Positions 5,005 through 20,552 of a DNA stretch of 64,000 bases are shown piece by piece (the stretch's first letter is position 1; every line of letters starts with the position of its first letter). The notes beneath the pieces were generated by a model that saw nothing but the letters and a program-made list of their open reading frames with translations, searched no databases and was not told the DNA's origin. Source of the DNA: Acidimicrobiia bacterium. GTDB taxonomy: Bacteria > Actinomycetota > Acidimicrobiia > Acidimicrobiales > CATQHL01. The stretch is taken from NCBI GenBank assembly GCA_009835395.1, contig VXXM01000071.1, positions 29,396 to 93,395 of the forward strand. The letters are read 5' to 3'. The translations under genes were made by a program, and so were the position numbers.

Positions 5005-6732
5005 CTATGACTTCGGCGCCTGGAACTCTCTGATCTGAGTCCAGCTCTGTGTCTCGTAGTCGTACTCCGACAGACCAGCACCGGAGGCGCAGGCGTGTCC
5101 GCCGTCAGCCCGCGGGCCGCAGGAGATCGGCGGCATGGCTCCCGTCTCGATGGGGTTGGCCCAGAGGCTCTCGGCCACGGCGTGGAAGTTGTCCCAGCTC
5201 AGATCACCCTCGAGGCGGTCGATCACCTCGAAGAAGGTGATGGAGTGCAGGTAGGTCTGCTCGCTGAAGTTGGGTGCCCGGCACTCGTCGCTGATCGAGT
5301 CGCAGTAGGCGTTGCGCAGCGCGCGCCACTGGCTCATCAACGGGGAGTCCGTATCGGGCAGGGCCACCTGCAGGGCGCCGAGGAATCCGTCGGCGGCCTC
5401 CTCGGCGGGGCCGACGGCGTTCTGGCCACCGGACCCTGCTGCGCCCTGATCGGAGCAGAGCAGCGCGTCGCTGTTGTTCTCGGCCAAGATCTGCAGGATC
5501 AGCGCGTTCTGGATGTTGTCCACGCCGGCGACGATGCCCTCGGCACCGCTGGCGATGACGTTCAGCACGGCCGGGCCGACGATCTCGGAGGCGGACTCGA
5601 CCGTCTCCTGGGCCACGATCTCCATGCCGTTGATGGGGGCCTGGATCTCCACGCCGGCGACGACCTCTTCACCGAGGGGGTTGGTGGCGCCGATGGTGGC
5701 GACCTTGGTGAAGCCCAGGTCGTCGAAGTGGTCGACGCAGATGCGGGCCTGCTCGGTCCGGCTGCTCGCCAGCCAGTAGACCTCCTGGCGCTCGATCTCG
5801 AACGGGGGCGAGATGGGCGCCCACATGATCACGCCGCTCTCAGCGAGGAAGTCGAACGTGCCCGGCAGGGCCCGGCTGTCGGCGGGGGAGAGGATGCCCC
5901 ACACGCCGTCGCGGTCGATCATGCGGCGGGTCTGGTTGATGAGTTCCTCCACCTCGTACTGGGAGTTGTAGTCGATGAGCTCGATCATGCAGCCGTCTAT
6001 GCCGCCGTTCGCGTTGATCTCCTCGACGGCGATCTTGATGCCGCCGAGCAGCTCAATGCCGGCCACGACGGCGGCACCGCCGACGGGCTGGACCGTACCG
6101 ATCTTCAGCACGCCGTTCTCGCTGTCCACACCCTGGGGCAGGTCGCCGGTGGTGTTGCCTCCGCAGATGGGGCCCGCGGCGGCGGCTGCGGCCTCGGCGG
6201 CTGCGGCCTCAGCTGCCCGAGCCTCTGTCTCGGCGGCTGCGGCCTCAGCCTGCGCGGCCTCGGCCTCCGCCTTGGCGGCGGCGGCCTCTTCCTGGGCGGT
6301 CGCGGCTTCGGCCTGCGCGGCGGCGGCCTCTTCCTGCGCGGCCGAGGCGGCCTGCCCGGCGGCCGCGGCAGCGTCCTGGGCCTCGGCAAGAGCCACCTCG
6401 GCCTCGGCGACGGCGGCTTCGTTGCCCGAAGCCGTGGCCTGCGCCAGGTCGGCGGCGGCCAGGGCCTCAGCGGCGTCGGCCGCGGCGGCGGCCGCGGCGG
6501 CGGCTGCGGCCTCGGCGGAGGCGGACGCGGCTTGCGCCTCGGCCATCGCGGCGCCGATGTCGGCGGCGGCGGCCGCGGCGGCCTGTGCCTCGCTCATCGC
6601 CGAGGAAGCGGCGGCTGATGCCGCCTGCGCCTCTGCGAGCGCCTCATCGGCTGCCTCGGTATCGGCGGCGCACGCCGCGGCGACGAGGCCGAAGACAGCC
6701 AGAAGTACGAGTGTGAGCCGAAGCTTTCGCAT
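5005..6732 (-). CDS. ABC transporter substrate-binding lipoprotein (LivK/Leu-Ile-Val-binding fold) with a long Ala/Glu-rich N-terminal tether
   Basis: Signal peptide plus lipobox (LVAAAC, Cys21). About 165 residues of A/E/Q low complexity follow, then a type-I periplasmic binding fold (VLKIGTVQPVGG...GGIKIAVEEINANGGIDG). It heads the liv-type operon. Confidence 0.8.
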   Translation of the reverse strand: MRKLRLTLVLLAVFGLVAAACAADTEAADEALAEAQAASAAASSAMSEAQAAAAAAADIGAAMAEAQAASASAEAAAAAAAAAAADAAEALAAADLAQATASGNEAAVAEAEVALAEAQDAAAAAGQAASAAQEEAAAAQAEAATAQEEAAAAKAEAEAAQAEAAAAETEARAAEAAAAEAAAAAAGPICGGNTTGDLPQGVDSENGVLKIGTVQPVGGAAVVAGIELLGGIKIAVEEINANGGIDGCMIELIDYNSQYEVEELINQTRRMIDRDGVWGILSPADSRALPGTFDFLAESGVIMWAPISPPFEIERQEVYWLASSRTEQARICVDHFDDLGFTKVATIGATNPLGEEVVAGVEIQAPINGMEIVAQETVESASEIVGPAVLNVIASGAEGIVAGVDNIQNALILQILAENNSDALLCSDQGAAGSGGQNAVGPAEEAADGFLGALQVALPDTDSPLMSQWRALRNAYCDSISDECRAPNFSEQTYLHSITFFEVIDRLEGDLSWDNFHAVAESLWANPIETGAMPPISCGPRADGGHACASGAGLSEYDYETQSWTQIREFQAPKS

Positions 6733-6881: not shown

Positions 6882-8903
6882 CTACAGGGCCCGGGCGACG
6901 CGGAAGGCGTCCCAGATGGCGTCGATGGCCTGGCGTGGGGCGAGGCAATCGCCGACGGCGTGCAACTCCACCCCGGGCGCCTCGCCGGCCTCGCTGAGGG
7001 CCAGCAACTCGCCGAAGAGGGCATCGTCGGCGACGCCGTAGGAAGCCCCGACGACGGAGTCGGCCGCAAGCAGGCGGGGCACGCTTGTGAGCGTCTCGGT
7101 GACCTCGGCCACACCGGGCCTGACGGCGCTCAAGGTGTGGTACTCGAGGAACGCCACGCCTGCGGTGCGCAACCGTCGCAGCATCGGCGGGCGGCTGAAG
7201 GCGTCCATCGAGGCGCCGACCCCCACCGGCGACACCAGCGTCACCTCATGGCCCGCGGCGGCCAGGTTCTCCGCCGTGGTGCAGACCTTCCAGCCGGCCT
7301 CGCCGGCGTCGACCAGCACGACGCGGGGACCGGTGACGCCGGCAGCGATGGCTTCCCGCACCGGGTGCACCAGTTCCCCGCCAGGCACGTCGAAGCTTCC
7401 CGGGAACGAGCCGGTCGCCACGATCACGCAGGAAGGATCGTCCGCCAGCGCCGTCGCCGCGTCGGCCCGTACCCCGGTGCGCACCTCCACGCCCAGCTTG
7501 CGGATCTGACCCTCGAGGTGCCGGACCGAGTTGGCGAACTCGTCTCGGTAGGGCATCGCGGCCGCGGCCACCAGAACTTGCCCGCCCAGTCTCTCGGCGG
7601 CCTCCAGCAGGATCACCCGGTGGCCCCGCAATGCCGCCGTCTCGGCGGCCTTCAGGCCCCCGGGACCGCCGCCGATCACCACCACCCGCCGGGATTCCCG
7701 CGCCACCTCGAGCCGGCGGAAGCCCCAGCGGGCCTCCTCGCCGACCGCAGGGTTCACGAGGCAGGCGATGGGGGAGCCCCGGTGCGGGCCGCCCCGGCAC
7801 CCCACGTTGCAGGAGATGCACTCGCGGATGTCCTCCCGGCGCCCCGACGCCGCCTTCGACGCCCATTCGGGGTCGGCGATGAGGGGGCGCACGAGGCAGA
7901 CGGCGTCGGCCACCTCCGCCGCCAGGAGCTCCTCACACTGCTCGGGGGTGACGAGGCGCGCCACGGCGAAGGTCGGCACACCGGCCGTCGCCTCGCGAAT
8001 CTCGGCGGCGTAGTGGGCGAACGGCGCCCGGGGGAAGCTCATGTCGGGGATCATCCGGTCGATGGAGGCGTAGTTGGACTGGCTCACGCTCACGTAGTCC
8101 ACGCGGGTGCGGGCCATGAGGTGCGCCACCACCTCGCTGCACTCGCCCGGGGTGAGCCCGCCCGGCACGAATTCCTCGGCGCTGACACGGATGCCGACAG
8201 GCACGCCGTCGCCGACCTGGGCTCGCACCGCCTCGAGCACCTCCAGCGGCAGCCGGCAGCGGTTCTCCAGCGAGCCTCCGTAGCCGTCGGTGCGACGGTT
8301 GCTGAACCGCGACAGGAACTCGCACAGCAGGTAGCCGTGGGCCAGGTACACCTCCAGCCCGTCGAAGCCGGCGGCGATGAGGCGCCGGGCCGCGCTGCGG
8401 TAGCAGTCGATCAACTCGGCGACGTCGCGGCGCGTCATGGCGTGGGGCACGACCCGGCTGGCCGGGTCGGCCAACGCGGACGGCGCCCAGAGTTCCCGGT
8501 GCGCCGCGAAGGTGTCGCCCTGGCGGCCCAGGTGCGAGAGCTGGCCGAAGATGGCGGCACCCTCCGCCTTCACCATCTCGGCCACCCTGGCGTAGGCCGG
8601 GATGCCGTCGTCGCTGTAGACCTCGTTCACGCCGGCCGCCGCCAGGCCCGTGGGGTGCACCATGGAGGACCCCTGGATGACGAGGCCGACCCCGCCGGCG
8701 GCCCGCTCGGCCAGGTAGTGGCCCTGGCGTTCGGTCAGGTGGTGCGAGTGCCAGTCCACGAAGCGCGAGCCGTGGCCGGCGAAGATCACGCGGTTGCGGA
8801 TCTCCAGCGGGCCGATTCGCAGCGGCCTGAACAGCAGTGGGTACGGCGGCGCCGCGGGTCCGCCAGGAGCGGCTGTCGAGCGCGGCGACGCCTCAGAACT
8901 CAT
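6882..8903 (-). CDS. 2,4-dienoyl-CoA reductase-like flavoenzyme (OYE TIM-barrel + 4Fe-4S + FAD/NAD(P) domain)
   Basis: 673 aa. N-terminal OYE-like region (FRPLRIGPLEIRNRVIFAGHG), cluster motif CISCNVGCRGGPHRGSPIAC (C-x2-C-x3-C-x11-C), and VVVIGGGPGGLKAAETAALRGHRVILLE. Same length class as FadH. Confidence 0.8.
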   Translation of the reverse strand: MSSEASPRSTAAPGGPAAPPYPLLFRPLRIGPLEIRNRVIFAGHGSRFVDWHSHHLTERQGHYLAERAAGGVGLVIQGSSMVHPTGLAAAGVNEVYSDDGIPAYARVAEMVKAEGAAIFGQLSHLGRQGDTFAAHRELWAPSALADPASRVVPHAMTRRDVAELIDCYRSAARRLIAAGFDGLEVYLAHGYLLCEFLSRFSNRRTDGYGGSLENRCRLPLEVLEAVRAQVGDGVPVGIRVSAEEFVPGGLTPGECSEVVAHLMARTRVDYVSVSQSNYASIDRMIPDMSFPRAPFAHYAAEIREATAGVPTFAVARLVTPEQCEELLAAEVADAVCLVRPLIADPEWASKAASGRREDIRECISCNVGCRGGPHRGSPIACLVNPAVGEEARWGFRRLEVARESRRVVVIGGGPGGLKAAETAALRGHRVILLEAAERLGGQVLVAAAAMPYRDEFANSVRHLEGQIRKLGVEVRTGVRADAATALADDPSCVIVATGSFPGSFDVPGGELVHPVREAIAAGVTGPRVVLVDAGEAGWKVCTTAENLAAAGHEVTLVSPVGVGASMDAFSRPPMLRRLRTAGVAFLEYHTLSAVRPGVAEVTETLTSVPRLLAADSVVGASYGVADDALFGELLALSEAGEAPGVELHAVGDCLAPRQAIDAIWDAFRVARAL

Positions 8904-8974: not shown

Positions 8975-9868
8975 TCAGGAGTCATCCGGGCGGGCCAGCA
9001 GCAGCAGGGCGGCCTCGGGGCAGGGCATGCCGATCTCCACGCCGCGGGCGGCGGCCAGAGCGTTGGCCGCAGAGATGATCCCGTCCTGGTAGTGCGACAG
9101 CCCGCTGCCCATGCGGGCGCGTCGGGCGTCCACGGTGGCGCCGGCGAGGCCGTCGGCCTCCACGATGAACAACCCCGCCATGCCCGAGTCGTCCATGCCG
9201 CGTCCCCCGTCGGAGCAGATGAACCCCCAGGGGCTCGCCCGGCGCAGGTACGGCACCGCACTGCGCCCGGTGTGCCCGGCGGTCACCAGCACGTTGCGGC
9301 CTCGGTCCACCTCGGTGGCGAAGGCTATGGAGTCGGTGGCGATCACGCAGCGCCCGTCGGATGCGGCGTGCATGACGGTGCGGTTGGTGATCTCGTCGGC
9401 GGCCGCCGGCGTGGGATCGTTCTCGAGCATCATCCGGGCGGCGTTGGCGACGGCCATGCCGGCCCGCACGCCGCAGTCGGCGGCAGGCTGGTTGAAGAAG
9501 CTGATGACGCCGTTGCGGTACAGGTGCACCCCGTCGCCGAGGCGGGCGCTCATCACGTCGGCGACCGCCGCCGGGATGTCCAGCGCCTCCAGGAACCACA
9601 GGCCGGCGATGGCCGAACCCTCGGGGCCGATGCCGCAGTCCATGCCGATGGCGCCCCGCGGGGCGGCCTCGGCGATGAACCGGGCCGGCAGCACCCCGCA
9701 GTAGGAGGAGTTCACGCAGACGTCCCGGCCGCGATTCGACGGGTCGACGTGATAGGCGGAGTCCATGGCGCAGATCCGCCCCCGCCCCGTCGGCGACGTG
9801 AACACCACGGTTTGCTGTTCGGGGGTCTGCTGCCCGGGAACCGCCTCGCCGGCCGGCTGGGAGCTCAT
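8975..9868 (-). CDS. conserved hypothetical protein with internal tandem domain duplication (paralog A)
   Basis: 297 aa. ATGA overlap with the upstream acyl-CoA ligase stop. The two halves align to each other, and the whole protein aligns to the 16399-17271 product. I recognise no known motif. Confidence 0.7.
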   Translation of the reverse strand: MSSQPAGEAVPGQQTPEQQTVVFTSPTGRGRICAMDSAYHVDPSNRGRDVCVNSSYCGVLPARFIAEAAPRGAIGMDCGIGPEGSAIAGLWFLEALDIPAAVADVMSARLGDGVHLYRNGVISFFNQPAADCGVRAGMAVANAARMMLENDPTPAAADEITNRTVMHAASDGRCVIATDSIAFATEVDRGRNVLVTAGHTGRSAVPYLRRASPWGFICSDGGRGMDDSGMAGLFIVEADGLAGATVDARRARMGSGLSHYQDGIISAANALAAARGVEIGMPCPEAALLLLARPDDS

Positions 9869-11547
9869 GGCTGCAGGTGCCGGCGCCGCGGTGCGGGGCC
9901 GCGGTCGTCGGTGCCGACGGCGACACCGGTGGCGCGCAACTCCACCTTGCGCACCTTCTCCGAGGGCGTCTTGGGGAGTTCGGCGACGAAGCGCAGGTAG
10001 CGGGGGACGGCGAAGTACGGCAACCGCCGGTCGGCGAAGGCCCAGAGGTCCGCGGCGGCGATCTCGGTACCCGGCTCGGGGACGATCACGGCCAGGACCT
10101 CGTCCTCGCCCGCCTCCTGGTCGGCGGGCACGGCGACCACCGCCACCTCGGCCACGGCCGGATGGCCCAGGAGGGCCTGTTCCACCTCGTAGGAGCTGAT
10201 GTTCTCGCCGCGGCGGCGGATGGCGTCCTTGAGTCGGTCCACGAAGTAGAACCAGCCCTCGGCGTCGCGGCGCAGCCCGTCACCTGTGTGCCACCAGAGG
10301 TTGCGCCATGCCTGCTGGGTCGCCTCGGGCATGTTGTAGTACCCCACCGACTGGGTCCAGGGATGGCGGGCGCGCACCACGAGTTCGCCCAGCTCGTCGA
10401 CGGGGACCTCCTCGTCGGTCTCGGGGTCCACGAGCCGCACGTCGAACCAGTCGCGGTTCGCCAGCCCGGCGGCGCCCGGCGGGCGACCCTCGCGGTAGGG
10501 GCTGAGGATCGGCATGCAGGTCTCGGTCAATCCGAACACCTCCACGAACGCCTCCACGCCGAACCGCTGCTTGAACCCTTCGAGGATGCCCGAGGCGGTG
10601 GGCGCGGCGAAGATGCAGCGCAGGTGGTTGTCGGCGTCGTCGGGCCGCGGCGGCTGCTGCCACACGAAGTCCATCATCACGCCGACGAAGTTCGTGACCG
10701 TGGCACCGCTGGCACGGACTTGGCCGCTCCAGGCGCTGGCGCTGAACCGTTCCTGCAGGACGTAGCGGGCGCCGGCGATCAGCGCGGGGTATGCCGCCAG
10801 GAAGTGGCTGTTGCCGTGGAACAGCGGGCCGGCCGACATGTAGACGTCGGCGTCGCTGAGGCGGGTGAGCGACACGCACTGGTCGGCGAAGAGGTACATG
10901 TGGGCGTGGGGCATCATGACGCCCTTCGACAGGCCCGTCGTGCCGGAGGTGAAGAAGACCGATCCCAGATCGGAGTGGCGCACCGCCGGGAGGTCCGCGC
11001 CGCCGGCCGGAGACTCCTCGAGCAACTCCTCCCAGCCGGAGACGGCGAATCCCGCCTTCTGCAGGGTCGCCGACGCGGCGGCCCGCTCGTCGGCTGTGCC
11101 GCCGGCGAGGAAGAAGCGCTCCACCGTGCGCACCGCCTCGGCGCTCTCGGCGAAGCGCTCGGCATATGCGGGATCGATGAGCGCCAGGCGCGGCGCCACG
11201 GTCCGGGCCTGATGCTCCAGGAAGCTTCCCCGGAAGGCCGTGTTGATGGGGACCTCCGCCAGCCGTGCCAGCGACGACCCGAGCCAGGCCAGGATGTAGG
11301 CGGAGCAGTTCGGCAACATGATGAGCAACCGGTCGCCGGGGATCGCGCCGGCGGCGAGCAGGTTGCGGGCCATCCGCTCGGCGAGATCGAGCGTCTCGGC
11401 GTAGCTGTAGGACTCGCCTGTCCAGGGAACGTCGAGGTAGACGCGATCGCCGTGCGTCTCGGCGCGGTGGCGCAGCACGTGGGGGGAATTCCAGTGGCCC
11501 CGGTCGGCGAAGCTCGGGCGGTACTGGTCGTAGCTTCGCGGGGTCAT
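9865..11547 (-). CDS. AMP-dependent acyl-CoA synthetase/ligase
   Basis: 560 aa with AMP-binding motif FFTSGTTGLSKGV and the C-terminal ...GDEV...LPKTPSEKVRK pattern. Confidence 0.85.
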   Translation of the reverse strand: MTPRSYDQYRPSFADRGHWNSPHVLRHRAETHGDRVYLDVPWTGESYSYAETLDLAERMARNLLAAGAIPGDRLLIMLPNCSAYILAWLGSSLARLAEVPINTAFRGSFLEHQARTVAPRLALIDPAYAERFAESAEAVRTVERFFLAGGTADERAAASATLQKAGFAVSGWEELLEESPAGGADLPAVRHSDLGSVFFTSGTTGLSKGVMMPHAHMYLFADQCVSLTRLSDADVYMSAGPLFHGNSHFLAAYPALIAGARYVLQERFSASAWSGQVRASGATVTNFVGVMMDFVWQQPPRPDDADNHLRCIFAAPTASGILEGFKQRFGVEAFVEVFGLTETCMPILSPYREGRPPGAAGLANRDWFDVRLVDPETDEEVPVDELGELVVRARHPWTQSVGYYNMPEATQQAWRNLWWHTGDGLRRDAEGWFYFVDRLKDAIRRRGENISSYEVEQALLGHPAVAEVAVVAVPADQEAGEDEVLAVIVPEPGTEIAAADLWAFADRRLPYFAVPRYLRFVAELPKTPSEKVRKVELRATGVAVGTDDRGPAPRRRHLQP

Positions 11548-11569: not shown

Positions 11570-12340
11570 CTACCGGGCGTCGCGCGGGGGAAACTGCGGC
11601 TTGCGCTTCTCCAGGAAGGCGTTGGCCCCCTCGAGCATGTCGGGCGAGCCGATGGCCTGCATCAGCATTCCCAGGCCGGACTGCATGTTGTCGCGCAGTT
11701 GGTGCCACCAGACGTTCGTGCTGATCTTGGCGATCTCCATGTAGCGCGCTGACATCGCGCAGATCTCGTCGCACCAGCGCTCCACCTCGGCGTACAGTTC
11801 GTCGTGGGGCACGACCGCATTGATCCAGCCCAGGTCCAGGGCCTCGGCGGCGCTGTAGGGGCGGCAGAGGTAGACCACCTCCTTGGCCTTCTTCTCTCCC
11901 ACGGTCATCGCCAGCAGGTTGGTGCCGCCCAGCACCGGGGCACTGCCGACCTTCACACCGGTCTGGCCGAAGCGTGCGTTCTCCGAGGCGATGGCCAGGT
12001 CGCACACCACGACCAGCTCGTTGCCGCCACCGAAGGCGGGACCGTTCACCGCGGCGATGACCGGCATCGGCGCCGAACGGATGGCGTCGAAGAGTTCGAG
12101 GCTGCCGGTGAACATGGCGCGCAACTCCCAGAAGTCGGGATCGGCCAGGTTCGCCAGGTAGCCGCCGGCGCAGAACGCCCGGCCCTCGCCGGTGATGACG
12201 GCGACCCGGGCGTCGCTGTGTTCGCGCAGGGCCGCGATGATCTCGTCGACGGTCGTCCGGTCGTACGCGTTGAGCCGCTCGGGTCGGTTCAGCCGCAACC
12301 AGAGAACCTTCTCCTGGCGCTCGGTGATCACGTCGGCCAT
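11570..12340 (-). CDS. enoyl-CoA hydratase/isomerase (crotonase) family protein
   Basis: Start taken at ATG 12338-12340 (MADVITERQEKVLWLRLNRPERLNAY), preceded by GGGAGGAG. Crotonase pattern ...FCAGGYL... and AAVNGPAFGGGNEL. Confidence 0.8.
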   Translation of the reverse strand: MADVITERQEKVLWLRLNRPERLNAYDRTTVDEIIAALREHSDARVAVITGEGRAFCAGGYLANLADPDFWELRAMFTGSLELFDAIRSAPMPVIAAVNGPAFGGGNELVVVCDLAIASENARFGQTGVKVGSAPVLGGTNLLAMTVGEKKAKEVVYLCRPYSAAEALDLGWINAVVPHDELYAEVERWCDEICAMSARYMEIAKISTNVWWHQLRDNMQSGLGMLMQAIGSPDMLEGANAFLEKRKPQFPPRDAR

Positions 12341-12523
12341 GGTTCGGTTGCTCCTCCCGCGGCGCACCACAGAGCGGCGCGTGACGCCTATCTACCAACC
12401 GTTTATTCTAGGTGCCGGAGCCGGAGCGGAGAGGTCCGCCCGCTACGCTGCGGCCGCCGTCGACAGTCTTCCTGAAGTCTCAGCGGCGGGAGCGACGAGG
12501 TCAAGCAAGGAGAGGGCTGGGCG

Positions 12524-13717
12524 ATGGCGATCTTCGAACTTCCCCAGTTGTATCGCGACGTGAAGGCCGAGGCGCAGGCGGTGGCCGCCGAGGTTGCGCC
12601 GTTCGCCGCCGAGGCGGACGAGAGCTCGGAGGTCCACGGGCCGACCCTGGCGATCCTGCGCTCGAGCCGGCTGTGCGAGCTGATGGTGCCGTCCGCCTAC
12701 GGGGGACGTTTCGAGCGGGTGGATCCGCTCGCCGTGTGCGTGGCGCGGGAGGTCTGCATGAAGGCCTCTGCACACTTGGACGCCCTGCTGGCCCTGCAGG
12801 GCATCGGGAGCTACGCGATCGCCGTCGGCGGCAGCGAGACGCAGCGGCGGACGTGGCTCCCGCGGGTGGCCTCGGGCGAGTCGTTGGCGGCGCTGGCGCT
12901 GACCGAACCCGAGGCGGGTTCGGATCTCAAGGCGATCACGACGACGCTGCGGCCCGCCACTCCCGGCGGCGACGAGTTCCTGCTGTCGGGCAACAAGTCG
13001 TTCATCTCGAATGCCCCCTCGGCTGATCTCTTCACGGTGCTGGCGCGCGAACCGGCGCCGGAAGGCGACGGCGAGGACAGCTACTCGATGGTGCTGGTGC
13101 CCGCCGACGCACCGGGCGTCCAAGTCTCGCCGACACCGGAGATCATGGCGCCGCATGTCCTCGGAGAGGTGGAGTTCCGCGACGTGGTGCTGCCCGCCGA
13201 CAATCGGCTGGGGCCTGCCGGCAAGGGGTTCGCCCACGTGTTCGCCACGCTGTCGGTGTTCCGGTCCTCGGTGGCGGGTGCGGCCGTGGGGCTCATGGAG
13301 GGGGCGCTGGAGGTCGCCGCCCGTCATGCTGCCGAGCGCCACCAGTTCGGGCGGCCGCTGGTGCGCCTGGGTTCAGTGGCGAACCTGCTCGCCGACTCAT
13401 GGGTGGACCTGGAGTCGTCCCGGCTGCTGGCCTACCGGGCCGCCGACACCGCCCGGCTCGACCCTGCCACCACCCTCGACTACTCCTCGCTGGCCAAGCT
13501 GGCGGCGACCGAGGCGGCCGGGCGTGTGGTGGACCGCTGCGTGCAGGTCATGGGACGCTGGGGGCTCATCAAGGGTTCCCGCATCGAGCAGTACTACCGC
13601 CAGGCCCGGCCCATGCGCCTCTACGAGGGGGCGAGCGAGGTGCTGCGCCTGGGGATCGCCAACCGCTTGTGCCGCGACATCCTCGAGCAGGACATGCCCG
13701 GCGATGCACAGGATTGA
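12524..13717 (+). CDS. acyl-CoA dehydrogenase
   Basis: 397 aa. Has the ALTEPEAGSD and C-terminal YEGASEVLRLGIA motifs characteristic of the ACAD family. AGGAGAGGG precedes the ATG. Confidence 0.85.
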   Translation: MAIFELPQLYRDVKAEAQAVAAEVAPFAAEADESSEVHGPTLAILRSSRLCELMVPSAYGGRFERVDPLAVCVAREVCMKASAHLDALLALQGIGSYAIAVGGSETQRRTWLPRVASGESLAALALTEPEAGSDLKAITTTLRPATPGGDEFLLSGNKSFISNAPSADLFTVLAREPAPEGDGEDSYSMVLVPADAPGVQVSPTPEIMAPHVLGEVEFRDVVLPADNRLGPAGKGFAHVFATLSVFRSSVAGAAVGLMEGALEVAARHAAERHQFGRPLVRLGSVANLLADSWVDLESSRLLAYRAADTARLDPATTLDYSSLAKLAATEAAGRVVDRCVQVMGRWGLIKGSRIEQYYRQARPMRLYEGASEVLRLGIANRLCRDILEQDMPGDAQD

Positions 13718-13746
13718 ACGCCCGGAGCCGATCGCGAGGCGCTGAC

Positions 13747-14499
13747 ATGGATCTCCAGTTGACCGACACCGTGGCCATCGTCACCGGGGCCAGCCGCGGA
13801 CTGGGCAGGGCCGCGGCCGAGGCTCTCGCCGGCGAGGGCGCGCGGGTCGTGGCAGCTGCCCGCTCGGCGGATGCCCTGGAGGATCTGGCGGCGGGCTCCG
13901 CCGGGCGGATCTGCCCGGTGCGCTGCGACATGCGCGACGCCGCCGAGGTCGCCGGCCTCGCCGAGGTGGCGATCGAGCGCTTCGGGCGGCTGGACTGCGT
14001 GGTCAACAACGCCGGGATCGCGCCCGCCGGCACGTTTCTGGATCAGGACCTGGAGGTGCTGGCGGAGGTGGTGGCGGTGAACGTGACGGCGCCGGCGGTC
14101 CTGTCGCAGGCCGCGGCCCGCCACTTCGTGGACTCCGGCCAGGGCGGCTCGATCATCAACGTCGGTTCCACCTCGAGCCTCAAGGGCAAGCCGCTGCTGG
14201 CCGCTTACAGCGCTTCGAAGGGTGCCCTGGCGCGCCTCACCGAGGCGCTGGCGGCAGAGTGGGCCCGCTACGGCATCAGGGTGAACATGATCGCCCCCGG
14301 CGCCTTCGCCACCGAGGCCCAGGCGCAGGTGCTGGCCGACGAGAAGATGCTCGCCGCTCGCCTCCGCAAGATCCCCCTGCGCCGGATGGGCGAGCCCGCC
14401 GAACTGGGCCCGCTGGTCTGCTACTTGGCCTCCCCCCTGGCGGCGTTCGTCACCGGTTCCTGTTTCGTGATCGACGGCGGCGAGGTGTCCAAGCTCTGA
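13747..14499 (+). CDS. short-chain dehydrogenase/reductase (SDR)
   Basis: Start at ATG 13747 (MDLQLTDTVAIVTGASRGLGRA). TGxxxGxG cofactor motif, NNAG, and YSASK catalytic motif. Confidence 0.85.
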   Translation: MDLQLTDTVAIVTGASRGLGRAAAEALAGEGARVVAAARSADALEDLAAGSAGRICPVRCDMRDAAEVAGLAEVAIERFGRLDCVVNNAGIAPAGTFLDQDLEVLAEVVAVNVTAPAVLSQAAARHFVDSGQGGSIINVGSTSSLKGKPLLAAYSASKGALARLTEALAAEWARYGIRVNMIAPGAFATEAQAQVLADEKMLAARLRKIPLRRMGEPAELGPLVCYLASPLAAFVTGSCFVIDGGEVSKL

Positions 14500-14575
14500 G
14501 CACCCACCGCAGCGCCGGGCGGCCCCGTGTGGCTGCCAACCGCTTCTCTCCATCCCAGTGACTCCAGGAGGTCCC

Positions 14576-15316
14576 ATGACAGTCCAGCCAACCCTCGTCG
14601 GGGGAGCCGACCGGTCGGTTCTGGGCAGCGCCCCCCTGGCGAGCGGCCAGATCGACGCCGTCTCGCCGAAGTTCGCCGAGGGCCTCGCCCGGGTGCGCGA
14701 GGTCACCGATACCGACGGCGCCTGTCCCGCCTGGGCGAAAGCGCTGTACATGGCGGCCGCGGCGGCCGTCAAGGGTCACCGCCAGATGCTGATGGCGCAG
14801 ATGGAACGATCGCGGGACCTGGGGCTCGAACTCGACGTGGCTCGCGGTGCCGCCCTCACCGTGCTGATCTCCCGCGGCGAGGCCGTCTACACCCTGTTCA
14901 ACTCGGCCATCGACGAGACCTTCGGCCGGACGCTCGGCGCCGGAAGCGGTGATGCCGAGGAGTTCTGCCTGGATCGCCGAGCGTGCCTCGACTACTTCGA
15001 GGACTACTTCGGGTTCGTTCCCGACTACGTGAAGCTCATGGCCGATGAGGCGCCCCGGGCGCTGGAGGGCTACGTGCTGATGCGCGAGTGGTCCCTGGCC
15101 GAGAACGTGCTGGACGCCGGCCACGCCGAACTGCTGCTGTGCACCATCAATGCCGCCGAATTCTCCGCCCGCTTCGTGAACGTGCACGCCAACGGCGCCC
15201 GCCGGGCCGGCTGCAGTGAGGCGCAGATCACCGAGGCGGTGGTGTGCGCCATCCCGGTGGCGGGCGTGGCGGCCTGGCTGCCGGGTGCCGACGGCATCAT
15301 GGAGGGCCGTTCGTGA
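14576..15316 (+). CDS. carboxymuconolactone decarboxylase (AhpD-like) family protein, two-domain
   Basis: ATG at 14576 sits 5 nt after AGGAGG; the ORF-track GTG at 14558 is less likely. Helical CMD-like repeats are present. The stop overlaps the next gene as GTGA. Confidence 0.5.
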   Translation: MTVQPTLVGGADRSVLGSAPLASGQIDAVSPKFAEGLARVREVTDTDGACPAWAKALYMAAAAAVKGHRQMLMAQMERSRDLGLELDVARGAALTVLISRGEAVYTLFNSAIDETFGRTLGAGSGDAEEFCLDRRACLDYFEDYFGFVPDYVKLMADEAPRALEGYVLMREWSLAENVLDAGHAELLLCTINAAEFSARFVNVHANGARRAGCSEAQITEAVVCAIPVAGVAAWLPGADGIMEGRS

Positions 15317-16353
15317 CACGTGCCGATGGTCTCGCCGACGGTCCGGCCGATGGCCTCATCGACGTGCACGGCCACATCGTGCTGGAGGGCTCGATGGGGC
15401 AGGCGGGAGCATGCGGCCCCGAGATCGGCCACCACCCCGACGGCAGCCCGTGGTTCCGCGTCGGCAACTACCAACTCGACGGCGTGGCCTACCGGGGATC
15501 GCTGTTCATCGAGGTGGACATGCGCCTCGCCGCCATGGACACCGCCGGGATCAGGCTGCAGGCACTCTCGCCGAACCCGCTGACCTACCTGCACTTCATC
15601 GACGCCCCCGCCGCGGTGGACTTCTGTCGGGCGCACAACGACAGCCTGGCCGAGGTCGTGGCCGGCCATCCCGGCCGGTTCGTGGGCCTCGGCGCCCTGC
15701 CGATGCAGGACATCGGGGCGGCCTGTGCCGAGTTGCGTCGCATCGTCGGCGACCTGGGGCTGCTCGGCGGTTACGTCGGCACCGACTTCGGCACGCCGCT
15801 GGACGCGCCCGCCATGGACGCCCTCTACGAGACCTGCCTGGAGCTGGACGTACCGCTGTTCCTGCACCCCACCCAGTCGGGCATCGACGGCCCGCTGCTG
15901 GACGAGCGTTTGCGGCGCTGGGATCTGGACCTCGTGCTGGAGTACTCCTTCGAGGAGGCCCTGGCAGCCGCGACGCTGATCTTCGGCGGCGTGCTGCGCC
16001 GTCACCCCGCCCTGGACATCTGCCTGAGCCACGGCGGGGGATCCCTGGCCCTGACGCTGTCAAAGCTGCGCAAGCTGGCCGAGCGGCGCCCCGCCTCGCC
16101 GGACTGGCTGAAGCCCGAAGGCGTCTTCGACAGCCAACTCGAACGGCTCTGGTTCGACTGCCACGTGACCGGCGAGCGCGAGTTCGCCTTCGTCACCGAC
16201 GTCCTGGGAACCGACCGGCTGGTCTACGGCACCAACTTCGGGGGCTGGGACCGCGGCGCCGGTCCGCACGTGGGCGAGTTGGCAGGCACGCTCAACGAGA
16301 ACGCCGCCCGGCTGCTGCGCCTGGGCGACCGGGCCCCTCAACTGCTGGCCTGA
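15313..16353 (+). CDS. amidohydrolase-2 family protein (ACMSD/LigW-type decarboxylase or hydratase fold)
   Basis: GTG at 15313 overlaps the upstream stop. It carries the DVHGH metal motif near the N-terminus, and later FLHPT and LSHGGG segments typical of PF04909-like proteins. Confidence 0.7.
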   Translation: MTRADGLADGPADGLIDVHGHIVLEGSMGQAGACGPEIGHHPDGSPWFRVGNYQLDGVAYRGSLFIEVDMRLAAMDTAGIRLQALSPNPLTYLHFIDAPAAVDFCRAHNDSLAEVVAGHPGRFVGLGALPMQDIGAACAELRRIVGDLGLLGGYVGTDFGTPLDAPAMDALYETCLELDVPLFLHPTQSGIDGPLLDERLRRWDLDLVLEYSFEEALAAATLIFGGVLRRHPALDICLSHGGGSLALTLSKLRKLAERRPASPDWLKPEGVFDSQLERLWFDCHVTGEREFAFVTDVLGTDRLVYGTNFGGWDRGAGPHVGELAGTLNENAARLLRLGDRAPQLLA

Positions 16354-16398: not shown

Positions 16399-17271
16399 AT
16401 GGCTACCGAAGCGCCGCTGCTGGCGAACGAGGCGGATCATCCCCAGGAGGTCGTGGCCACACACGGTGACCGGCGGGTCGTGGTCATGGACTCGGCCCGC
16501 TACGTGGACGCCCGCAACCACCGCAGCGACGTCGTGGTGCCTGCCTCGTACCTCGGGGTGCTGCCCGCGCGGCTCATGGTGCCTCACAGGCCTCGGGCGG
16601 TCATCGCCCACGACGGCGCCGTCGGCATGGACGGGGCGGGCATCGCGGGGCTGTGGTACCTGGAGGCGCTCGGCATCCCCGCTGCCACGGCGTCAGCCGA
16701 ATCGTCGGAGTTGGGCAACGGCATGGACCAGTACGCCTGCGGGGTGATCAGCCGGCTCAACATCTACGCCGAGCGCTGCGGGGTGACCGAGGGGATGCCG
16801 GTGGCGGAGGCCGCCAGGCTGCTGGCCTGCAACGACCCGGTCGGCGAGATCGACGAGGGCACGAAGATCCGCCGCGAGGTCATGGCCACCTCGCCGACGG
16901 GTCGGGAGTTGGTGGTGACCGATTCCATCGTGTTCGCCCAGCCGGGGGACTCCCGCAACGTGCTGGTGACCGCCGGCCACACCGGCCGCAGCGGGGCGGG
17001 GTTCTTGCTGGAGGTCTCCCCGCACGGCTTCATCTGCGCCGACGGCGGCCGCGCCAAGAACGACTCCGGCATCGCCGGCCTGGCCATCGTGGAGCGCCAC
17101 GGCCTGGCGGGCGGCTCCTTCGATGCGTGGACGGCCCCCATCGGCGACGCCTTCAAGGCGTACGAGATCGGCAAGGTCGGCGCCTGCAACCGCCTGGCGG
17201 CGGCTCGTGGCGTCGCGGTGGGCATGCCGGTTCGCAACGCCGCCATGGCGCTCCTGCTGCACGAGGACTGA
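16399..17271 (+). CDS. conserved hypothetical protein with internal tandem domain duplication (paralog B)
   Basis: 290 aa, colinear with the 8975-9868 product. Shared blocks include SY.GVLPAR, G.DG.GIAGLW.LEALGIPAA, NVLVTAGHTGRS, GFIC.DGGR..DSG.AGL and N.LAAARGV.GMP. Confidence 0.7.
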   Translation: MATEAPLLANEADHPQEVVATHGDRRVVVMDSARYVDARNHRSDVVVPASYLGVLPARLMVPHRPRAVIAHDGAVGMDGAGIAGLWYLEALGIPAATASAESSELGNGMDQYACGVISRLNIYAERCGVTEGMPVAEAARLLACNDPVGEIDEGTKIRREVMATSPTGRELVVTDSIVFAQPGDSRNVLVTAGHTGRSGAGFLLEVSPHGFICADGGRAKNDSGIAGLAIVERHGLAGGSFDAWTAPIGDAFKAYEIGKVGACNRLAAARGVAVGMPVRNAAMALLLHED

Positions 17272-17278: not shown

Positions 17279-17704
17279 ATGCAGCCGCCGGACCGCGCCG
17301 ACCGAGCGCTGACCGGTGAGTTCTGGGCTGGCGTGGACCGGGGCGAACTGCTGCGGCCGGTCTGCGGACGCTGCGGGCGGAGCTTCTTCACCCCCCAGGT
17401 GGTCTGCCCTCTCTGCGGCAGCGGGCGTTGGACCTACGAGCCGAGCGCGGGACGCGGCACGGTCTACAGCTTCACCGTGGTGCATCGCCCGCCCGAGCCG
17501 GCCTTCGAGGCGCCGTACACCCTGGCCGTCGTTGACATGGCCGAGGGCTGGCACCTGCTGACGTGGATCGTGGACTGTCCGGCGGACGAGGTCCGGATCG
17601 GGATGGAGGTGCAGGTCCGGTTCACAGCCGGACCCGACGGCGCGCTCCTGCCGGCATTCGCCCCGCGGGCCGCCGCCCATGGGCCTGCCGGAGCGGCGGC
17701 ATGA
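17279..17704 (+). CDS. DUF35-type Zn-ribbon/OB-fold protein (thiolase-associated)
   Basis: ATG at 17279. Zinc ribbon CGRCGRSFFTPQVVCPLCGS is followed by the OB-fold segment GTVYSFTVVH...LAVVDMAEG. The stop overlaps the next start as ATGA. Confidence 0.75.
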   Translation: MQPPDRADRALTGEFWAGVDRGELLRPVCGRCGRSFFTPQVVCPLCGSGRWTYEPSAGRGTVYSFTVVHRPPEPAFEAPYTLAVVDMAEGWHLLTWIVDCPADEVRIGMEVQVRFTAGPDGALLPAFAPRAAAHGPAGAAA

Positions 17705-19254
17705 ACGTCGGCCTGGCCTTCCGGCGCAACGCCGTGCGCTACCCGCACGGGACCGCGCTGTTCGACGTGGGGCCGCAGCGACGCGACGTGACCTGGGCGG
17801 AGCTGGAGGAGCGGACCAACCGCATCGCCAACACGCTCGCGGGCGCGCTCGGCATCGAGCTCGGGGACCGCGTGGCGCTGCTCGTGGCGAACCGTCCCGA
17901 GGTCGTCGAGGTGCTCGGCGGGATCACCAAAGCCGGAGCCGTCCACGTGGGGCTCAACTTCCGCCTCGGTCCCGTCGAGCTGGACCAGATCGTGGACAAT
18001 GCCCGGCCGCGCCTGCTGCTCTGCGACAGCGAGTACCTCAGCCAGACCGCCGAGGTCGCCGAGAAGTACGGCCTCGAGGTGCTGGACATCGACGGCGAGC
18101 CGTACCGGTCCCTCGTGGCCGCGGGGTCGCCGCGGTCGCCCGCCACGTTGCACGAGGTGCGACCGGGCGACGACTTCTGCATCGTCTACACGAGCGGAAC
18201 GACCGGGCGGCCCAAGGGCGTGCTCTTCGACCATGCCCGCGTCCTGCAGCACGCCACCGTGACGGCGCTGGAATACGAGATCTCCCGCCACAGCCGCTAC
18301 CTGTTGCAGATACCGCACAACTCCAGCGTCAACATCACAATCGTGCCGACGCTGCTCATCGGGGCCGCGCTGGGGTTCCGGGACAGCCGCAGCTTCGAAC
18401 CCCGAGGATTCGCCGAGACGGTCGACCGCCAGGGTGTCACCCACTCGTTCCTGGTACCGACGCAGCTGATGCGCCTGCTGGGGAGCCTGCCGCCGGCAGA
18501 CGACGGCCTGCTGGGCGGGCTGGTGACATTGGGCTACGGCGCATCGCCCATCTCGCCGGAGCGCCTGGGCGAGCTGATCGGCCGTTTCGGCAACGTCTTC
18601 AACCAGCTCTACGGCATGGCCGAGATCGCCTCCATCGGCACGATGCTGCGCAAGGACGACCACCTCCGAGGGCTGACCGAACGTCCGGAGTTGCTGGGTT
18701 CCTGCGGCCAGCCGTCCTACGCCGTGGACGTGCGAGTGGTCGACCCCGACGGCAACGACGTCGCCACGGGGGAGCGGGGCGAGGTCGTCTTCGGCGGGCC
18801 CTATGTCATGAAGGGCTACTACCGGGACCCCGAACGCACCGCCGAGTCGCTGCGGGACGGCTGGATGCACTCCGGCGATGTGGCCACCGTCGACGACGAG
18901 GGGTTCATCTACATCGTCGACCGGCTCAAGAACCTCATCATCCGGGGCGGGCTGAACATCGCCCCCACCGAGATCGAGAACGTGCTGTACCGCCACCCGG
19001 CTGTGCTGGAGTGCTCGGTGGTGGGGGTGCCCGACACCGACTGGGGCGAGGCCATCGTGGCGGTGGCGGTGCTCAAGGAAGGGATGGCGGTCGGCCCCGA
19101 CGAACTGCGGGAGCACTGCCGGCACTCGGAGTTGACCTCGATCAAGGTGCCCGAGCGAGTGGAGCTGATCGACGCCCTGCCGAAGAACGCCGTCGGCAAG
19201 ATCGCCAAGGACGAGATCCGCAAGCGCTACTGGGGCGAGGGGCGCCAGGTGTGA
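17701..19254 (+). CDS. AMP-dependent acyl-CoA synthetase/ligase
   Basis: ATG at 17701 (MNVGLAFRRNAVRYPHGTALFD). Motif IVYTSGTTGRPKGV and C-terminal LPKNAVGKIAK. Confidence 0.85.
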   Translation: MNVGLAFRRNAVRYPHGTALFDVGPQRRDVTWAELEERTNRIANTLAGALGIELGDRVALLVANRPEVVEVLGGITKAGAVHVGLNFRLGPVELDQIVDNARPRLLLCDSEYLSQTAEVAEKYGLEVLDIDGEPYRSLVAAGSPRSPATLHEVRPGDDFCIVYTSGTTGRPKGVLFDHARVLQHATVTALEYEISRHSRYLLQIPHNSSVNITIVPTLLIGAALGFRDSRSFEPRGFAETVDRQGVTHSFLVPTQLMRLLGSLPPADDGLLGGLVTLGYGASPISPERLGELIGRFGNVFNQLYGMAEIASIGTMLRKDDHLRGLTERPELLGSCGQPSYAVDVRVVDPDGNDVATGERGEVVFGGPYVMKGYYRDPERTAESLRDGWMHSGDVATVDDEGFIYIVDRLKNLIIRGGLNIAPTEIENVLYRHPAVLECSVVGVPDTDWGEAIVAVAVLKEGMAVGPDELREHCRHSELTSIKVPERVELIDALPKNAVGKIAKDEIRKRYWGEGRQV

Positions 19255-20552
19255 GCGGCCCCGCGGCCCGGCGCCATCCGCTGGCGGGCATCGCCGTGGC
19301 GGGGGTCGCGGCCACGCGCCAGGCCCGCAGCCTCGACGGCAACTCGATACAGATCTGCCTCGAGGCGGCCCGGGCGGCGCTCGACGACGCCGGCATGACG
19401 ATCGACGAGGTGGACGGCATCTCGGCACGCTGGCCTGGTCCCGGCGGCACCGTCTTCGGGCCCGGCTCGGTGGACTGGACCGCCGTGTTCGGCAAGGGGT
19501 TCGACTGGGTGGGCGACACCTACCCGCAGGGCGCCCCCGGCCTGCTCGACGCCGCCGCCGCCATCCTGGCGGGGCAGTGCTCCACGGTGCTGGTGTTCGG
19601 CGGCCGGGCAGGCGAGTCTGCGGCGGGTTCCCCCGGCGCCGCCACGAGGGCCACTGTTCCGTCGGGCGACGACGCCTCGAGCGCCGCTGTTTCGTCGGGC
19701 GACGACGCCATGAGCGCCGCTGTTTCGTCGGGCGACGACGCCACGAGCGCCGTCGCGAGCTACACGCGGCCCGAGAACGAGTTCGTGGCCTGCTGGGGCT
19801 CGCTCACGGCGGCGCAGTTCGCCCTGGTGGCGCAGGTGTACCTGCACCGGTTTGCCCCCGATCCGGAGCGGATGGCTCTGGTGCCCGCCACGATCCGCAA
19901 CGCGGGGTCCGCCAATCCGGAGGCGGTGATGTACGGGCGAGGCCCCTACGAACCCGCCGACATCCTGGCCTCGCCACCGGTCGCCGAGCCGTTCCGGTTG
20001 CTGGATCTGTGCCTGGCCACCGAGGGTGCCGCCGCCATGGTCGTCACGGGCGTCGAGCGCGCCCGGGACTGCCCGTCGGCGCCTGCGGTGATCCTCGGCG
20101 GGGGCTCGGAGTGGTACCGCCAGCAGTACGTGGATCCGCCCCGCTACGACGACGTGGCCCGGATCGGCGCCGGCGCCTACCGCCGCAGCTTCGGCATGGC
20201 CGGCCTGCGGCCCGGCGACGTGGACGTCTTCGAGCTCTACGACATCTGTACCTTCGAGGTGGTCCGGCAGTTCGAGACTCTGGGCCTCTGCGCCGAGGGC
20301 GAGGGCGTCGACTACCTGGCCGAGGCCGGCATCGGGCTCGACGGCCGGCATCCCACCAACACCGACGGGGGGCTGCTGGCGTACTCGCACGTCGGCTGGG
20401 GCGGGCCGACGCTGAAGATCGTCGAGGCCGTGCGCCAGATCCGCGGCGCCGCCGGGCCCGGGCAGGTCCCCGGCGCCGAGGTGGCCCTGGTGACCGGCGC
20501 CGGCGCGGGGGCCCAGTACCACAACGCGGTGCTGTTGGGAGCCGACCGCTAG
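19251..20552 (+). CDS. thiolase-fold (SCP-x/Ltp-like) protein, apparently lacking the canonical Cys nucleophile
   Basis: GTG at 19251 overlaps the ligase stop as GTGA. It has thiolase-like N- and C-terminal halves (…ILAGQCSTVLVFGG…, …NTDGGLLAYSHVGWGGPT…). It is the usual partner of DUF35 proteins. Confidence 0.7.
   Translation: MSGPAARRHPLAGIAVAGVAATRQARSLDGNSIQICLEAARAALDDAGMTIDEVDGISARWPGPGGTVFGPGSVDWTAVFGKGFDWVGDTYPQGAPGLLDAAAAILAGQCSTVLVFGGRAGESAAGSPGAATRATVPSGDDASSAAVSSGDDAMSAAVSSGDDATSAVASYTRPENEFVACWGSLTAAQFALVAQVYLHRFAPDPERMALVPATIRNAGSANPEAVMYGRGPYEPADILASPPVAEPFRLLDLCLATEGAAAMVVTGVERARDCPSAPAVILGGGSEWYRQQYVDPPRYDDVARIGAGAYRRSFGMAGLRPGDVDVFELYDICTFEVVRQFETLGLCAEGEGVDYLAEAGIGLDGRHPTNTDGGLLAYSHVGWGGPTLKIVEAVRQIRGAAGPGQVPGAEVALVTGAGAGAQYHNAVLLGADR
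19653..19751 (+). repeat. in-frame 33-bp tandem repeat, 3 copies, inside the thiolase-fold gene
   Basis: Copies at 19653-19685, 19686-19718 and 19719-19751, differing at only a few bases. They encode (V/A)SSGDDA(S/M/T)SAA units. Confidence 0.9.

Follow-up and report, generated by a model that had tools for sequence, protein, structure and literature searches.

Two tandem DUF1805-like proteins encoded in catabolic operons of an Acidimicrobiia bacterium

Results

Two divergent operons and a pair of paralogs

The DNA analysed here, referred to as the window, is a stretch of 64,000 nucleotides from an Acidimicrobiia bacterium. The target gene, X, is the last cistron of an operon that runs crotonase, AMP-ligase, X (Table 1). 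The crotonase is BadI/MenB-like: its best NCBIfam match is BadI and its best PDB match is MenB, both under equivalog cut-offs. X starts with ATG in the open-reading-frame list, and reading the sequence confirmed the earlier note's claim that this ATG overlaps the ligase stop codon. An overlap of the X start with the stop of the preceding gene is also seen in 48 of 72 ortholog loci. The product would be a cytoplasmic protein of about 30 kDa.

A divergent operon encodes, in order, an acyl-CoA dehydrogenase (ACAD), a short-chain dehydrogenase/reductase (SDR), a carboxymuconolactone-decarboxylase/AhpD-like (CMD) protein, an ACMSD-like decarboxylase, a paralog of X (X'), a DUF35 protein, a second AMP-ligase and a thiolase-like protein. 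X', which the earlier note had missed, is 50% identical to X (BLASTP E 1e-80). The window thus holds two members of the family, each adjoining an AMP-ligase.

Table 1. Features of the X and X' operons, with positions in the window
Feature	Position	Strand	Evidence or remark
OYE/FadH-like flavoenzyme downstream of X	6882..8903	-	Pfam Oxidored_FMN and Pyr_redox_2
Gene X, 297-aa tandem DUF1805-like protein	8975..9868 (stop codon included)	-	ORF list; >1248 homologs; 765 clusters at 50% identity
C-module of X, residues ~158-297	8978..9397	-	Residue conservation; AF2 module model pLDDT 94.8
N-module of X, residues ~17-152	9413..9820	-	BLASTP, hhalign, residue conservation
ATGA stop/start overlap, AMP-ligase 1 TGA / X ATG	9865..9868	-	Sequence read
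AMP-dependent acyl-CoA ligase 1, directly upstream of X, same operon	9865..11547	-	Pfam AMP-binding E 1e-57
BadI/MenB-like crotonase, first operon gene	11570..12370	-	Pfam ECH_1
ACAD, first gene of divergent operon	12524..13717	+	
SDR	13741..14499	+	
CMD protein	14558..15316	+	Pfam CMD
Amidohydro_2, ACMSD/gamma-resorcylate-decarboxylase-like	15313..16353	+	GTG at 15313 (inferred start) overlaps CMD stop
Paralog X', second tandem DUF1805-like protein, 290 aa	16399..17271	+	BLASTP, tblastn of window
DUF35 protein (zf-ChsH2 and OB_ChsH2_C)	17279..17704	+	Starts 7 nt past X' stop
AMP-ligase 2	17701..19254	+	ATGA overlap onto DUF35 stop
SCP-x-type thiolase-like protein	19251..20552	+	GTGA overlap onto ligase 2 stop

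X consists of two copies of one module

X is a real, widely conserved protein built from two copies of one small domain. The earlier note had proposed a tandem duplication with a pseudo-dimeric build, and this is borne out. Self-alignment of X is significant, with its halves 35% identical over 130 residues without a gap (BLASTP E 5e-22), and profiles of 16 N-modules and 16 C-modules from diverse homologs align over 124 columns with an hhalign probability of 100% (E 3.9e-41). The module is about 135 residues long rather than the ~115 first estimated. Two such modules occur per chain throughout the family: an alpha/beta unit of ~135 residues was duplicated within the chain early on, and all members share the event.

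AlphaFold models full-length X with a pLDDT of 83.5 and a single module with 94.8. The secondary-structure order, b-b-b-a-b-a-b-a-b-a-a, is identical in both halves. Foldseek searches of the PDB with the full-length and single-module models returned nothing at E<0.05 (best E 0.16). PDB sequence and profile searches with X, its relative P0254, a 78-member family profile and a module profile found only a short DinB motif or noise, and neither X nor X' had a match in NCBIfam. No solved structure or profile offers a mechanistic template for X.

A divergent relationship to DUF1805

Sequence profiles place the X family with Pfam DUF1805 (PF08827, YunC-like) as a divergent, tandem-duplicated branch, and the relationship is a distant one. 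X itself falls below the DUF1805 gathering cut-off of 29.5 bits, with residues 263-287 on profile positions 37-61 at 17.3 bits (E 0.0058), as does X' at 21.6 bits. The relationship follows by transitivity, since clear relatives of X pass the cut-off: P0254, with two matching stretches, reaches 45.7 bits and P0175 reaches 34.6. Of 78 diverse family members, 48 match DUF1805 at E<=1e-3 (best 7.7e-12), and the matching members align with X at E 1e-21 or better. Some already carry the JGI label 'YunC (DUF1805 family)'. The suggestion that X matches no family therefore holds in the sense that no characterised family is matched, but not for DUF1805, which two members reach above the gathering score.

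The likeness lies in the last ~64 residues of each X module, which fit the profile from the D.AGIAGL helix to the GV..GM....A helix. Canonical YunC-type proteins are single domains of ~100 residues; the X family differs in architecture by fusing two ~135-residue modules, each with an additional N-terminal b-b-b-a-b part that contains the DS, SHGG and DxGxG motifs. DUF1805 entries were absent from the Foldseek top 50 for the full-length and module models and from the PDB sequence and profile searches. Nor does the relationship explain X mechanistically, as DUF1805 is itself of unknown function. Literature searches on DUF1805 and YunC returned nothing relevant, and no experimental datum on any family member was found; a 2026 JBC paper on L-threonate 3-dehydrogenase, retrieved in a search on DUF1537 and RuBisCO-like proteins (RLP), does not mention the X family.

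The Y-family polymerase label is a false positive

Database entries for the family are almost always labelled 'hypothetical protein' or carry a DNA-polymerase domain tag. The tag comes from Pfam IMS (impB/mucB/samB, PF00817), which scores 28.5 bits on X against a gathering cut-off of 23.2 and matches 41 of 41 close homologs; in addition, Foldseek superposes a 30-residue stretch on Pol eta with an rmsd of 1.6 A. Taken at face value, these matches would tie X to the Y-family DNA polymerases, as a relative or a fragment of one, a reading that is almost certainly wrong. The IMS match is confined to profile positions 31-59 of 148, a strand-helix motif (GVIS..N..A..GV..GM) that also forms the core of the match to DUF1805. 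The rest of the polymerase is left unaligned, Foldseek alignments span 30-73 columns with overall TM scores of 0.10-0.27, and the context of X is purely catabolic. What X shares with Y-family polymerases is a strand-helix-turn-helix of ~30 residues (GVIS.aN..A...GV..GM) that resembles the finger motif at residues ~35-65 of DinB and Pol eta, whereas the palm domain, the catalytic carboxylates and the little-finger domain are missing. The polymerase residues that contact the dNTP correspond to variable positions in the X family. As a family assignment the polymerase is refuted, and the IMS label on most database members is a false positive.

Glycine-rich motifs had also led us to consider swivelling, PurE/LarB and CoA-transferase folds. 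The swivelling domain of PEP-utilising enzymes, PurE/LarB-like, MogA-like and B12-binding domains and family I CoA-transferase were rejected for want of profile or fold support. Pfam models for PEP-utilisers, PurE/LarB and family I CoA-transferase gave no match at E<=0.1 among 41 members or at E<=1e-3 among 78, and Foldseek with the module model returned LarB only at probability 0.11 and neither PPDK, EI nor CoA-transferase. Pfam and Foldseek likewise gave X no similarity to hot-dog, crotonase, thiolase or OB-fold proteins.

Conserved residues follow the strands of each module

The motif G.I..D.G.G..(D/E).G.AGL...EA described in the earlier note is real and family-wide. Among the 78 diverse members, its Asp is present in 78 C-modules and 68 N-modules; a conserved His occurs in 74 C-modules versus 56 N-modules, and a conserved Asn in 77 versus 78. 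The C-module of X carries the conserved D179-S180, H199, D220, S266 and N269, while the N-module site is degenerate in the X clade, where the family His is replaced by Tyr56 and Ala by Cys78. In the AlphaFold models, read together with the alignment, every conserved motif of the module directly follows a strand; from this topology, the conserved residues would be expected to cluster in one crevice. The glycine-rich loops coincide with the low-confidence segments of the full-length model (residues 81-83 and 221-230). Most of the conserved residues are glycines, so a purely structural or binding role would fit them as well.

Family distribution and gene neighbourhoods

The X family comprises at least 765 clusters at 50% identity in Bacteria and haloarchaea. 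A genome scan with an alignment of members of at least 57% identity found orthologs of the X subgroup in 346 species-level genomes, and in sponge-associated and marine Acidimicrobiia one of the catabolic gene clusters that contain the family shows strong conservation. In 80 ortholog loci, the most conserved neighbour of X is the BadI/MenB-like crotonase (ECH, 69 loci), equalled in count by SDR (69) and followed by ACAD (57), CMD (53), ligase (48) and Amidohydro_2 (43); a paralog lies within 10 kb in 42. FadH/OYE adjoins X in only eight. The FadH-like reductase, which the earlier note had taken as a functional neighbour, is thus a local one.

The proposed tie to AMP-ligases is genuine, as seen from both family members in the window and the 48 ligase-containing loci, but it is not general. 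Ligase and X overlap at stop and start in 27 of 45 ortholog loci, and AMP-ligases adjoin homologs in a betaproteobacterial MAG, at a 52%-identity locus, on Rhodococcus pRZP2 and in Dactylosporangium and Pseudonocardia. However, about 27 ortholog loci have no ligase at the X junction; the crotonase stop overlaps the X start instead (as ATGA at locus L041), and in these genomes the paralog also lacks the DUF35-ligase pair. No ligase lies near the gene in clades at 30-38% identity, where ThDP enzymes, RLP with a kinase, or a CoA-transferase are found. The ThDP enzymes beside distant members include E1 alpha/beta and ALS-like proteins, the latter below all equivalog cut-offs. In three haloarchaeal genera, members lie beside RLP, a DUF1537 kinase and an SDR; another context combines RraA-like, FAA-hydrolase and HMG-CoA-lyase genes. 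IclR or GntR regulators are often near members of distant clades. All contexts seen but one are organic-acid catabolic clusters, whose other genes encode enzymes that produce or use up oxo-acids or break C-C bonds. The exception is the Ponticoccus plasmid p-SCP4, which has replication/partition and PQQ-dehydrogenase genes around the family member.

The pairing of X with X' recurs across three phyla. The set of X', DUF35, ligase and thiolase-like genes is also found on Rhodococcus pRZP2 and at locus L007. CMD is fused to paralog-type proteins in P0126/P0127 and in P0160, which are independent fusions; P0126 is 58% identical to the CMD protein of the window and 60% to X'. The CMD domain itself (PF02627) has no match in X or X' and is present only as a fused extra domain or a separate neighbour. 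Among operons for CoA-dependent C-C cleavage, known DUF35/thiolase-like pairs (ChsH2-Ltp2, BbsAB) and BadI/MenB crotonases share only their context with X and X'.

Discussion

From its place in tightly coupled catabolic operons, X may supply a step or subunit that is missing from current schemes of organic-acid and acyl-CoA degradation. In our judgement there is about an even chance that X and X' serve organic-acid catabolism, CoA-dependent at this locus, as soluble subunits that catalyse a step or handle a substrate and that bind an anionic intermediate. The anionic group bound by each module, a carboxylate, phosphoryl or CoA, would belong to a labile intermediate of the oxo-acid type. It would sit in a crevice where the parallel beta-strands end C-terminally, with the conserved loops DS, (S/G)H(G/T)G, DxGxGxD and G-x-IS-xx-N as its walls. 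Of the two sites, that of the C-module would be the conserved one. Given the degenerate N-module site of the X clade (His to Tyr), X would be a functional 'heterodimer in one chain'. It is possible, and we suggest it only tentatively, that the tandem DUF1805-like proteins are an unrecognised enzyme family, with a fold absent from the PDB, that carries out a cofactor-independent acid-base step on labile 3-oxo-acids or their CoA or phospho derivatives. Candidate chemistries include isomerisation, tautomerisation, controlled decarboxylation or hand-over. If so, such a step would fill a gap in several pathways: the degradation of alicyclic or branched acyl-CoA in Acidimicrobiia and Rhodococcus, the ThDP-enzyme clusters of Proteobacteria and the RLP/DUF1537 acid-sugar clusters of haloarchaea. 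The 'oxo-acid' theme may be coincidence, since the neighbourhoods are heterogeneous and catabolic clusters often contain SDRs and decarboxylases in any case.

These observations could also be accommodated by a non-catalytic adaptor or scaffold, which we regard as rather unlikely. The pseudo-dimer, alone or with its paralog, would hold or stabilise partner enzymes without binding substrate: the crotonase and ligase in the case of X, the CMD protein and the DUF35-ligase-thiolase set in that of X'. Fusion to CMD in at least two lineages, tight translational coupling of X to whichever gene is upstream, the joint occurrence of X and X' and the preponderance of Gly or Ala among invariant residues all fit an adaptor, and partners that vary widely by clade are easier to explain by one than by an enzyme with fixed chemistry. 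Yet co-evolution with one class of partner would be expected of an adaptor, rather than its recurrence beside unrelated ones. Moreover, invariant or near-invariant Asp, His, Ser and Asn in the strand-end loops of both modules, retained across ~30% identity, are typical of ligand or active sites and not of interfaces between proteins.

The earlier note envisaged a dedicated partner of the AMP-ligase, acting on or near an acyl-adenylate or acyl-CoA through a pocket between the modules. The ATGA junction with ligase 1, the AMP-ligase in the X' operon, the frequency of ligase neighbours and overlaps among orthologs, and the ligases beside homologs in L005, L007, Rhodococcus, Dactylosporangium and Pseudonocardia all speak for it, but we now consider it improbable. 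The conserved residues lie inside each module and not only at the putative interface. A role specific to acyl-adenylates is not implied, because the FadH/OYE link is unconserved, the ligase is missing at the crotonase-coupled junctions and distant clades are ligase-free; the broader part of the proposal, that X acts on organic-acid or acyl-CoA intermediates, is plausible. X is very unlikely to be a small-molecule sensor or regulatory protein that signals to the catabolic operon how much of a pathway intermediate is present. Two ligand-type modules per chain and the nearby IclR/GntR regulators would suit a sensor. Against this, Pfam searches found no DNA-binding or signalling domain in any member, the gene is embedded in enzyme operons with overlapping stop and start codons, and its fusion partner, CMD, is an enzyme-family domain rather than an output domain.

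The X family is one among many conserved domains of unknown function, and its description overturns no established idea. Its interest lies in its size and spread, with hundreds of clusters and, for one subgroup alone, hundreds of species-level genomes. A confident model without a PDB neighbour makes it a reasonable target for structural genomics and enzyme discovery. Members occur in Rhodococcus, rhizobia and haloarchaea, and cultured carriers include Rhodococcus, Pseudonocardia thermophila, Dactylosporangium, Rhizobium leguminosarum, Aminobacter and Haloterrigena.

A divergent, duplicated family within the DUF1805/YunC superfamily

The two halves of the target protein align ungapped over 130 residues at 35% identity (E 5e-22). 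Profiles built from 16 diverse family members, each cut into N- and C-modules, match over 124 columns with an hhalign probability of 100% (E 3.9e-41). The earlier note had proposed two tandem copies of ~115 aa and asked for a formal repeat comparison; the duplication is borne out and the internal repeat is significant, but the modules of the target are larger, at ~135 aa (residues ~17-152 and ~158-297). Both modules occur in all full-length relatives, and by sequence comparison the duplication is therefore ancient. No alternative in-frame start precedes the conserved region of the ORF (from about residue 19), and its ATG overlaps the TGA of the AMP-ligase 1 gene as ATGA, as the note had read it.

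The target is not an orphan. A word-indexed search returned more than 1248 relatives. HMMER, run exhaustively over representatives at 50% identity, returned 765 clusters at E<=1e-3, of which 364 reach E<=1e-10. In a pattern scan of species-representative genomes, target orthologs were present in 346, mainly Acidimicrobiia, many of them sponge or marine MAGs including 'Ca. Poriferisocius'; orthologs also occur in cultured Pseudonocardia thermophila and Dactylosporangium and in proteobacterial MAGs. Family homologs are plasmid-borne in Rhodococcus, Rhizobium, Aminobacter, Ponticoccus and four haloarchaeal genera.

A Pfam scan of the target gives two weak matches, IMS and DUF1805. The DUF1805 score (17.3 bits) is under the 29.5 cut-off, but the more distant family members P0254 (45.7 bits, matching in both modules) and P0175 (34.6 bits) exceed it, and at E<=1e-3 the profile finds 48 of 78 diverse members. 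We therefore place the family, on profile evidence, in the DUF1805/YunC superfamily as a divergent branch with an internal duplication, where the earlier note could match it to no family. To our knowledge, the function of this superfamily is not known, and "uncharacterised" remains apt: neither a characterised relative nor a structural template was found for the family. NCBIfam has no model for it, and its members are named 'hypothetical protein' apart from some JGI entries, 'uncharacterized protein YunC (DUF1805 family)'. The family, a tandem and extended form of DUF1805-like protein, is already in databases and partly auto-labelled.

The IMS match would make the target a relative of Y-family polymerases, and at 28.5 bits it is over its cut-off. 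It spans only profile positions 31-59 of 148, a strand-helix motif (GVIS..N..A..GV..GM) that is also the source of the only PDB matches. We reject it as a false positive and consider the polymerase reading refuted. Most family members database-wide carry a precomputed IMS label, a systematic false annotation, because this 29-position motif alone exceeds the gathering cut-off.

Predicted structure and conserved residues

AlphaFold2 modeled a single module with high confidence (32-module alignment; pLDDT 94.8, pTM 0.90) and the topology b1-b2-b3-a1-b4-a2-b5-a3-b6-a4-a5. In the full-chain model (41 homologs; pLDDT 83.5, pTM 0.69), both halves have the same order of elements. Foldseek found nothing significant in the PDB for the full-chain or single-module model (best E 0.055 and 0.16), the matches being short beta-alpha-beta pieces and a 30-residue polymerase motif. 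Each conserved family motif follows a strand of the model: DS after b2, (S/G)H(G/T)G after b3, DxGxGxD after b4, ARIGDG after b5, and IS..N on and after b6. Ligand sites of alpha/beta folds lie at C-terminal strand ends and helix N-termini, and glycine-rich loops in such places typically bind anions. The topology thus points to a candidate anion or ligand site at the conserved loops. Among 78 diverse members, conservation is stricter in the C-module than in the N-module (His, 74 against 56; Asp, 78 against 68; Asn, 77 against 78), and the N-module His is replaced by Tyr in both the target and its paralog.

Gene neighborhood

A minus-strand operon runs from a crotonase (nearest BadI/MenB, under equivalog cut-offs) through AMP-ligase 1 and ends with the target. 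An OYE/FadH-like gene lies 71 nt downstream of the target, followed by a Liv-type ABC transporter. A divergent, tightly packed plus-strand operon of eight genes contains a paralog that the earlier note did not mention. This gene is the key both to a Rosetta-stone connection to the CMD protein and to a second AMP-ligase operon.

Features of the window around the target and its paralog
Feature	Position	Strand	Remarks
Peripla_BP_6 solute-binding protein	5005-6732	-	
Target	8975-9868	-	297 aa, ATG start (ORF list)
AMP-ligase 1	9865-11547	-	
ACAD		+	operon gene 1; nearest cyclohexane-1-carbonyl-CoA dehydrogenase, under cut-off
SDR		+	operon gene 2
CMD-family protein		+	operon gene 3
ACMSD/gamma-resorcylate-decarboxylase-like Amidohydro_2		+	operon gene 4; GTGA overlap
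Paralog	16399-17271	+	operon gene 5; 50% identical to target, E 1e-80
DUF35 (zf-ChsH2/OB_ChsH2_C)		+	operon gene 6; 7-nt gap after paralog
AMP-ligase 2		+	operon gene 7; ATGA overlap
SCP-x-type thiolase-like protein		+	operon gene 8; GTGA overlap
DUF35, AMP-ligase 2 and thiolase-like unit	17279-20552	+	ATGA and GTGA stop/start overlaps
Region past the cluster	20565-30221		

The window's proteins served as queries against 80 ortholog loci. A crotonase and an SDR each lie near the ortholog in 69 loci, ACAD in 57, CMD in 53, ligase 1 in 48, Amidohydro_2 in 43 and the paralog in 42. OYE/FadH is present in just eight, and the FadH link drawn in the earlier note fails. In ~27 loci without ligase 1, the crotonase is directly upstream of the ortholog, and in 21 of these its stop overlaps the ortholog start by 4 nt; where a ligase is upstream, a 1-20 nt overlap is seen in 27 of 45. 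What the gene is coupled to is thus the operon rather than the ligase itself. The ligase-less arrangement is seen at L024-L062 and at 'Ca. Poriferisocius' loci like them; at L041 (9189-10882), for example, the crotonase stop and the ortholog ATG form ATGA. In those genomes the paralog likewise lacks the DUF35-ligase 2 genes; the two ligases appear to be gained or lost together.

The paralog-DUF35-ligase 2 order is retained in the 12 closest loci, and the full unit of family member, DUF35, ligase and thiolase, with overlapping stops, recurs at locus L007 (52% identity) and on Rhodococcus plasmid pRZP2. At L007 (5883-9867) a caprolactamase-alpha/acetophenone-carboxylase-like Hydantoinase_A gene sits between two family members, with no Hydantoinase_B partner within 9 kb. 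Pairs of family members in one locus occur in three phyla. The fusion protein P0126 is 60% identical to the paralog in its N-terminal part and 58% identical to the window's CMD protein in its C-terminal part; P0160 is an independent CMD-domain fusion.

With the sole exception of Ponticoccus plasmid p-SCP4, where the gene lies among replication/partition and PQQ-dehydrogenase genes with no obvious catabolic cluster, distant clades (30-38% identity) place the family in organic-acid catabolic clusters. Proteobacterial loci contain an ALS-like ThDP enzyme (~575-582 aa; five of six) and E1 alpha/beta (four of six), along with RraA-like proteins, 2-hydroxyacid dehydrogenases, TRAP or TctC transporters and IclR or GntR regulators; at one, a GMC oxidoreductase is directly upstream. 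The Aminobacter locus reads CoA-transferase, HMG-CoA-lyase, RraA, VOC, family member, dienelactone hydrolase, FAA hydrolase, and the Rhizobium locus ACAD, ECH, MmsB, ECH, SDR, family member. Haloarcula, Haloterrigena and Natrinema share a conserved operon of family member, RuBisCO-like protein and DUF1537 'four-carbon acid sugar kinase', with TRAP transporter, aldolase, SDR and VOC genes before it and IclR after it; these acid-sugar-type clusters are the plasmid loci L092, L094 and L095. In these catabolic clusters the family member usually has an SDR nearby, together with enzymes of oxo-acid formation or cleavage (ThDP enzymes, decarboxylases, aldolases, thiolase-like proteins, BadI/MenB crotonases). 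These contexts hint at a labile oxo-acid, in many cases a 3-oxo-acid, whether free or in the form of a CoA or phospho ester, but only faintly, since enzymes of these kinds are frequent in catabolic clusters in any case.

Possible functions

Overall, we see an even chance that the target and paralog are soluble catalytic or substrate-handling components of their pathways; any specific chemistry is considerably less probable. In the target, the glycine-rich crevice of the conserved C-module would hold an anionic intermediate, and the N-module would be a degenerate copy in this clade. The target would work with the crotonase and ligase, and the paralog with CMD, the decarboxylase and DUF35-ligase-thiolase. 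The CMD fusions and variable partners would also be consistent with a non-catalytic adaptor, a possibility we rate clearly lower. The earlier note implied a role on or next to an acyl-CoA or acyl-adenylate. The ATGA overlap aside, a dedicated ligase partner is improbable and the acyl-adenylate link fails, given ortholog loci that lack the ligase and distant clades that are free of it. A sensor or regulator is least plausible of these, as the protein has no output domain and its gene is embedded in enzyme operons. Conserved domains of unknown function are many and this family is just one of them, but it is a solid enzyme-discovery target with tractable hosts.

The window has the look of a large catabolic island that handles lipid, terpenoid or steroid-like acids. 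The region past the cluster encodes another ACAD, two cytochrome P450s, an SDR and a B12-binding-domain protein. In the Peripla_BP_6 protein, ~190 N-terminal residues of almost pure Ala/Glu/Gln repeats (AEAQAAAAAA...) precede the binding domain, an unusually long low-complexity tether.
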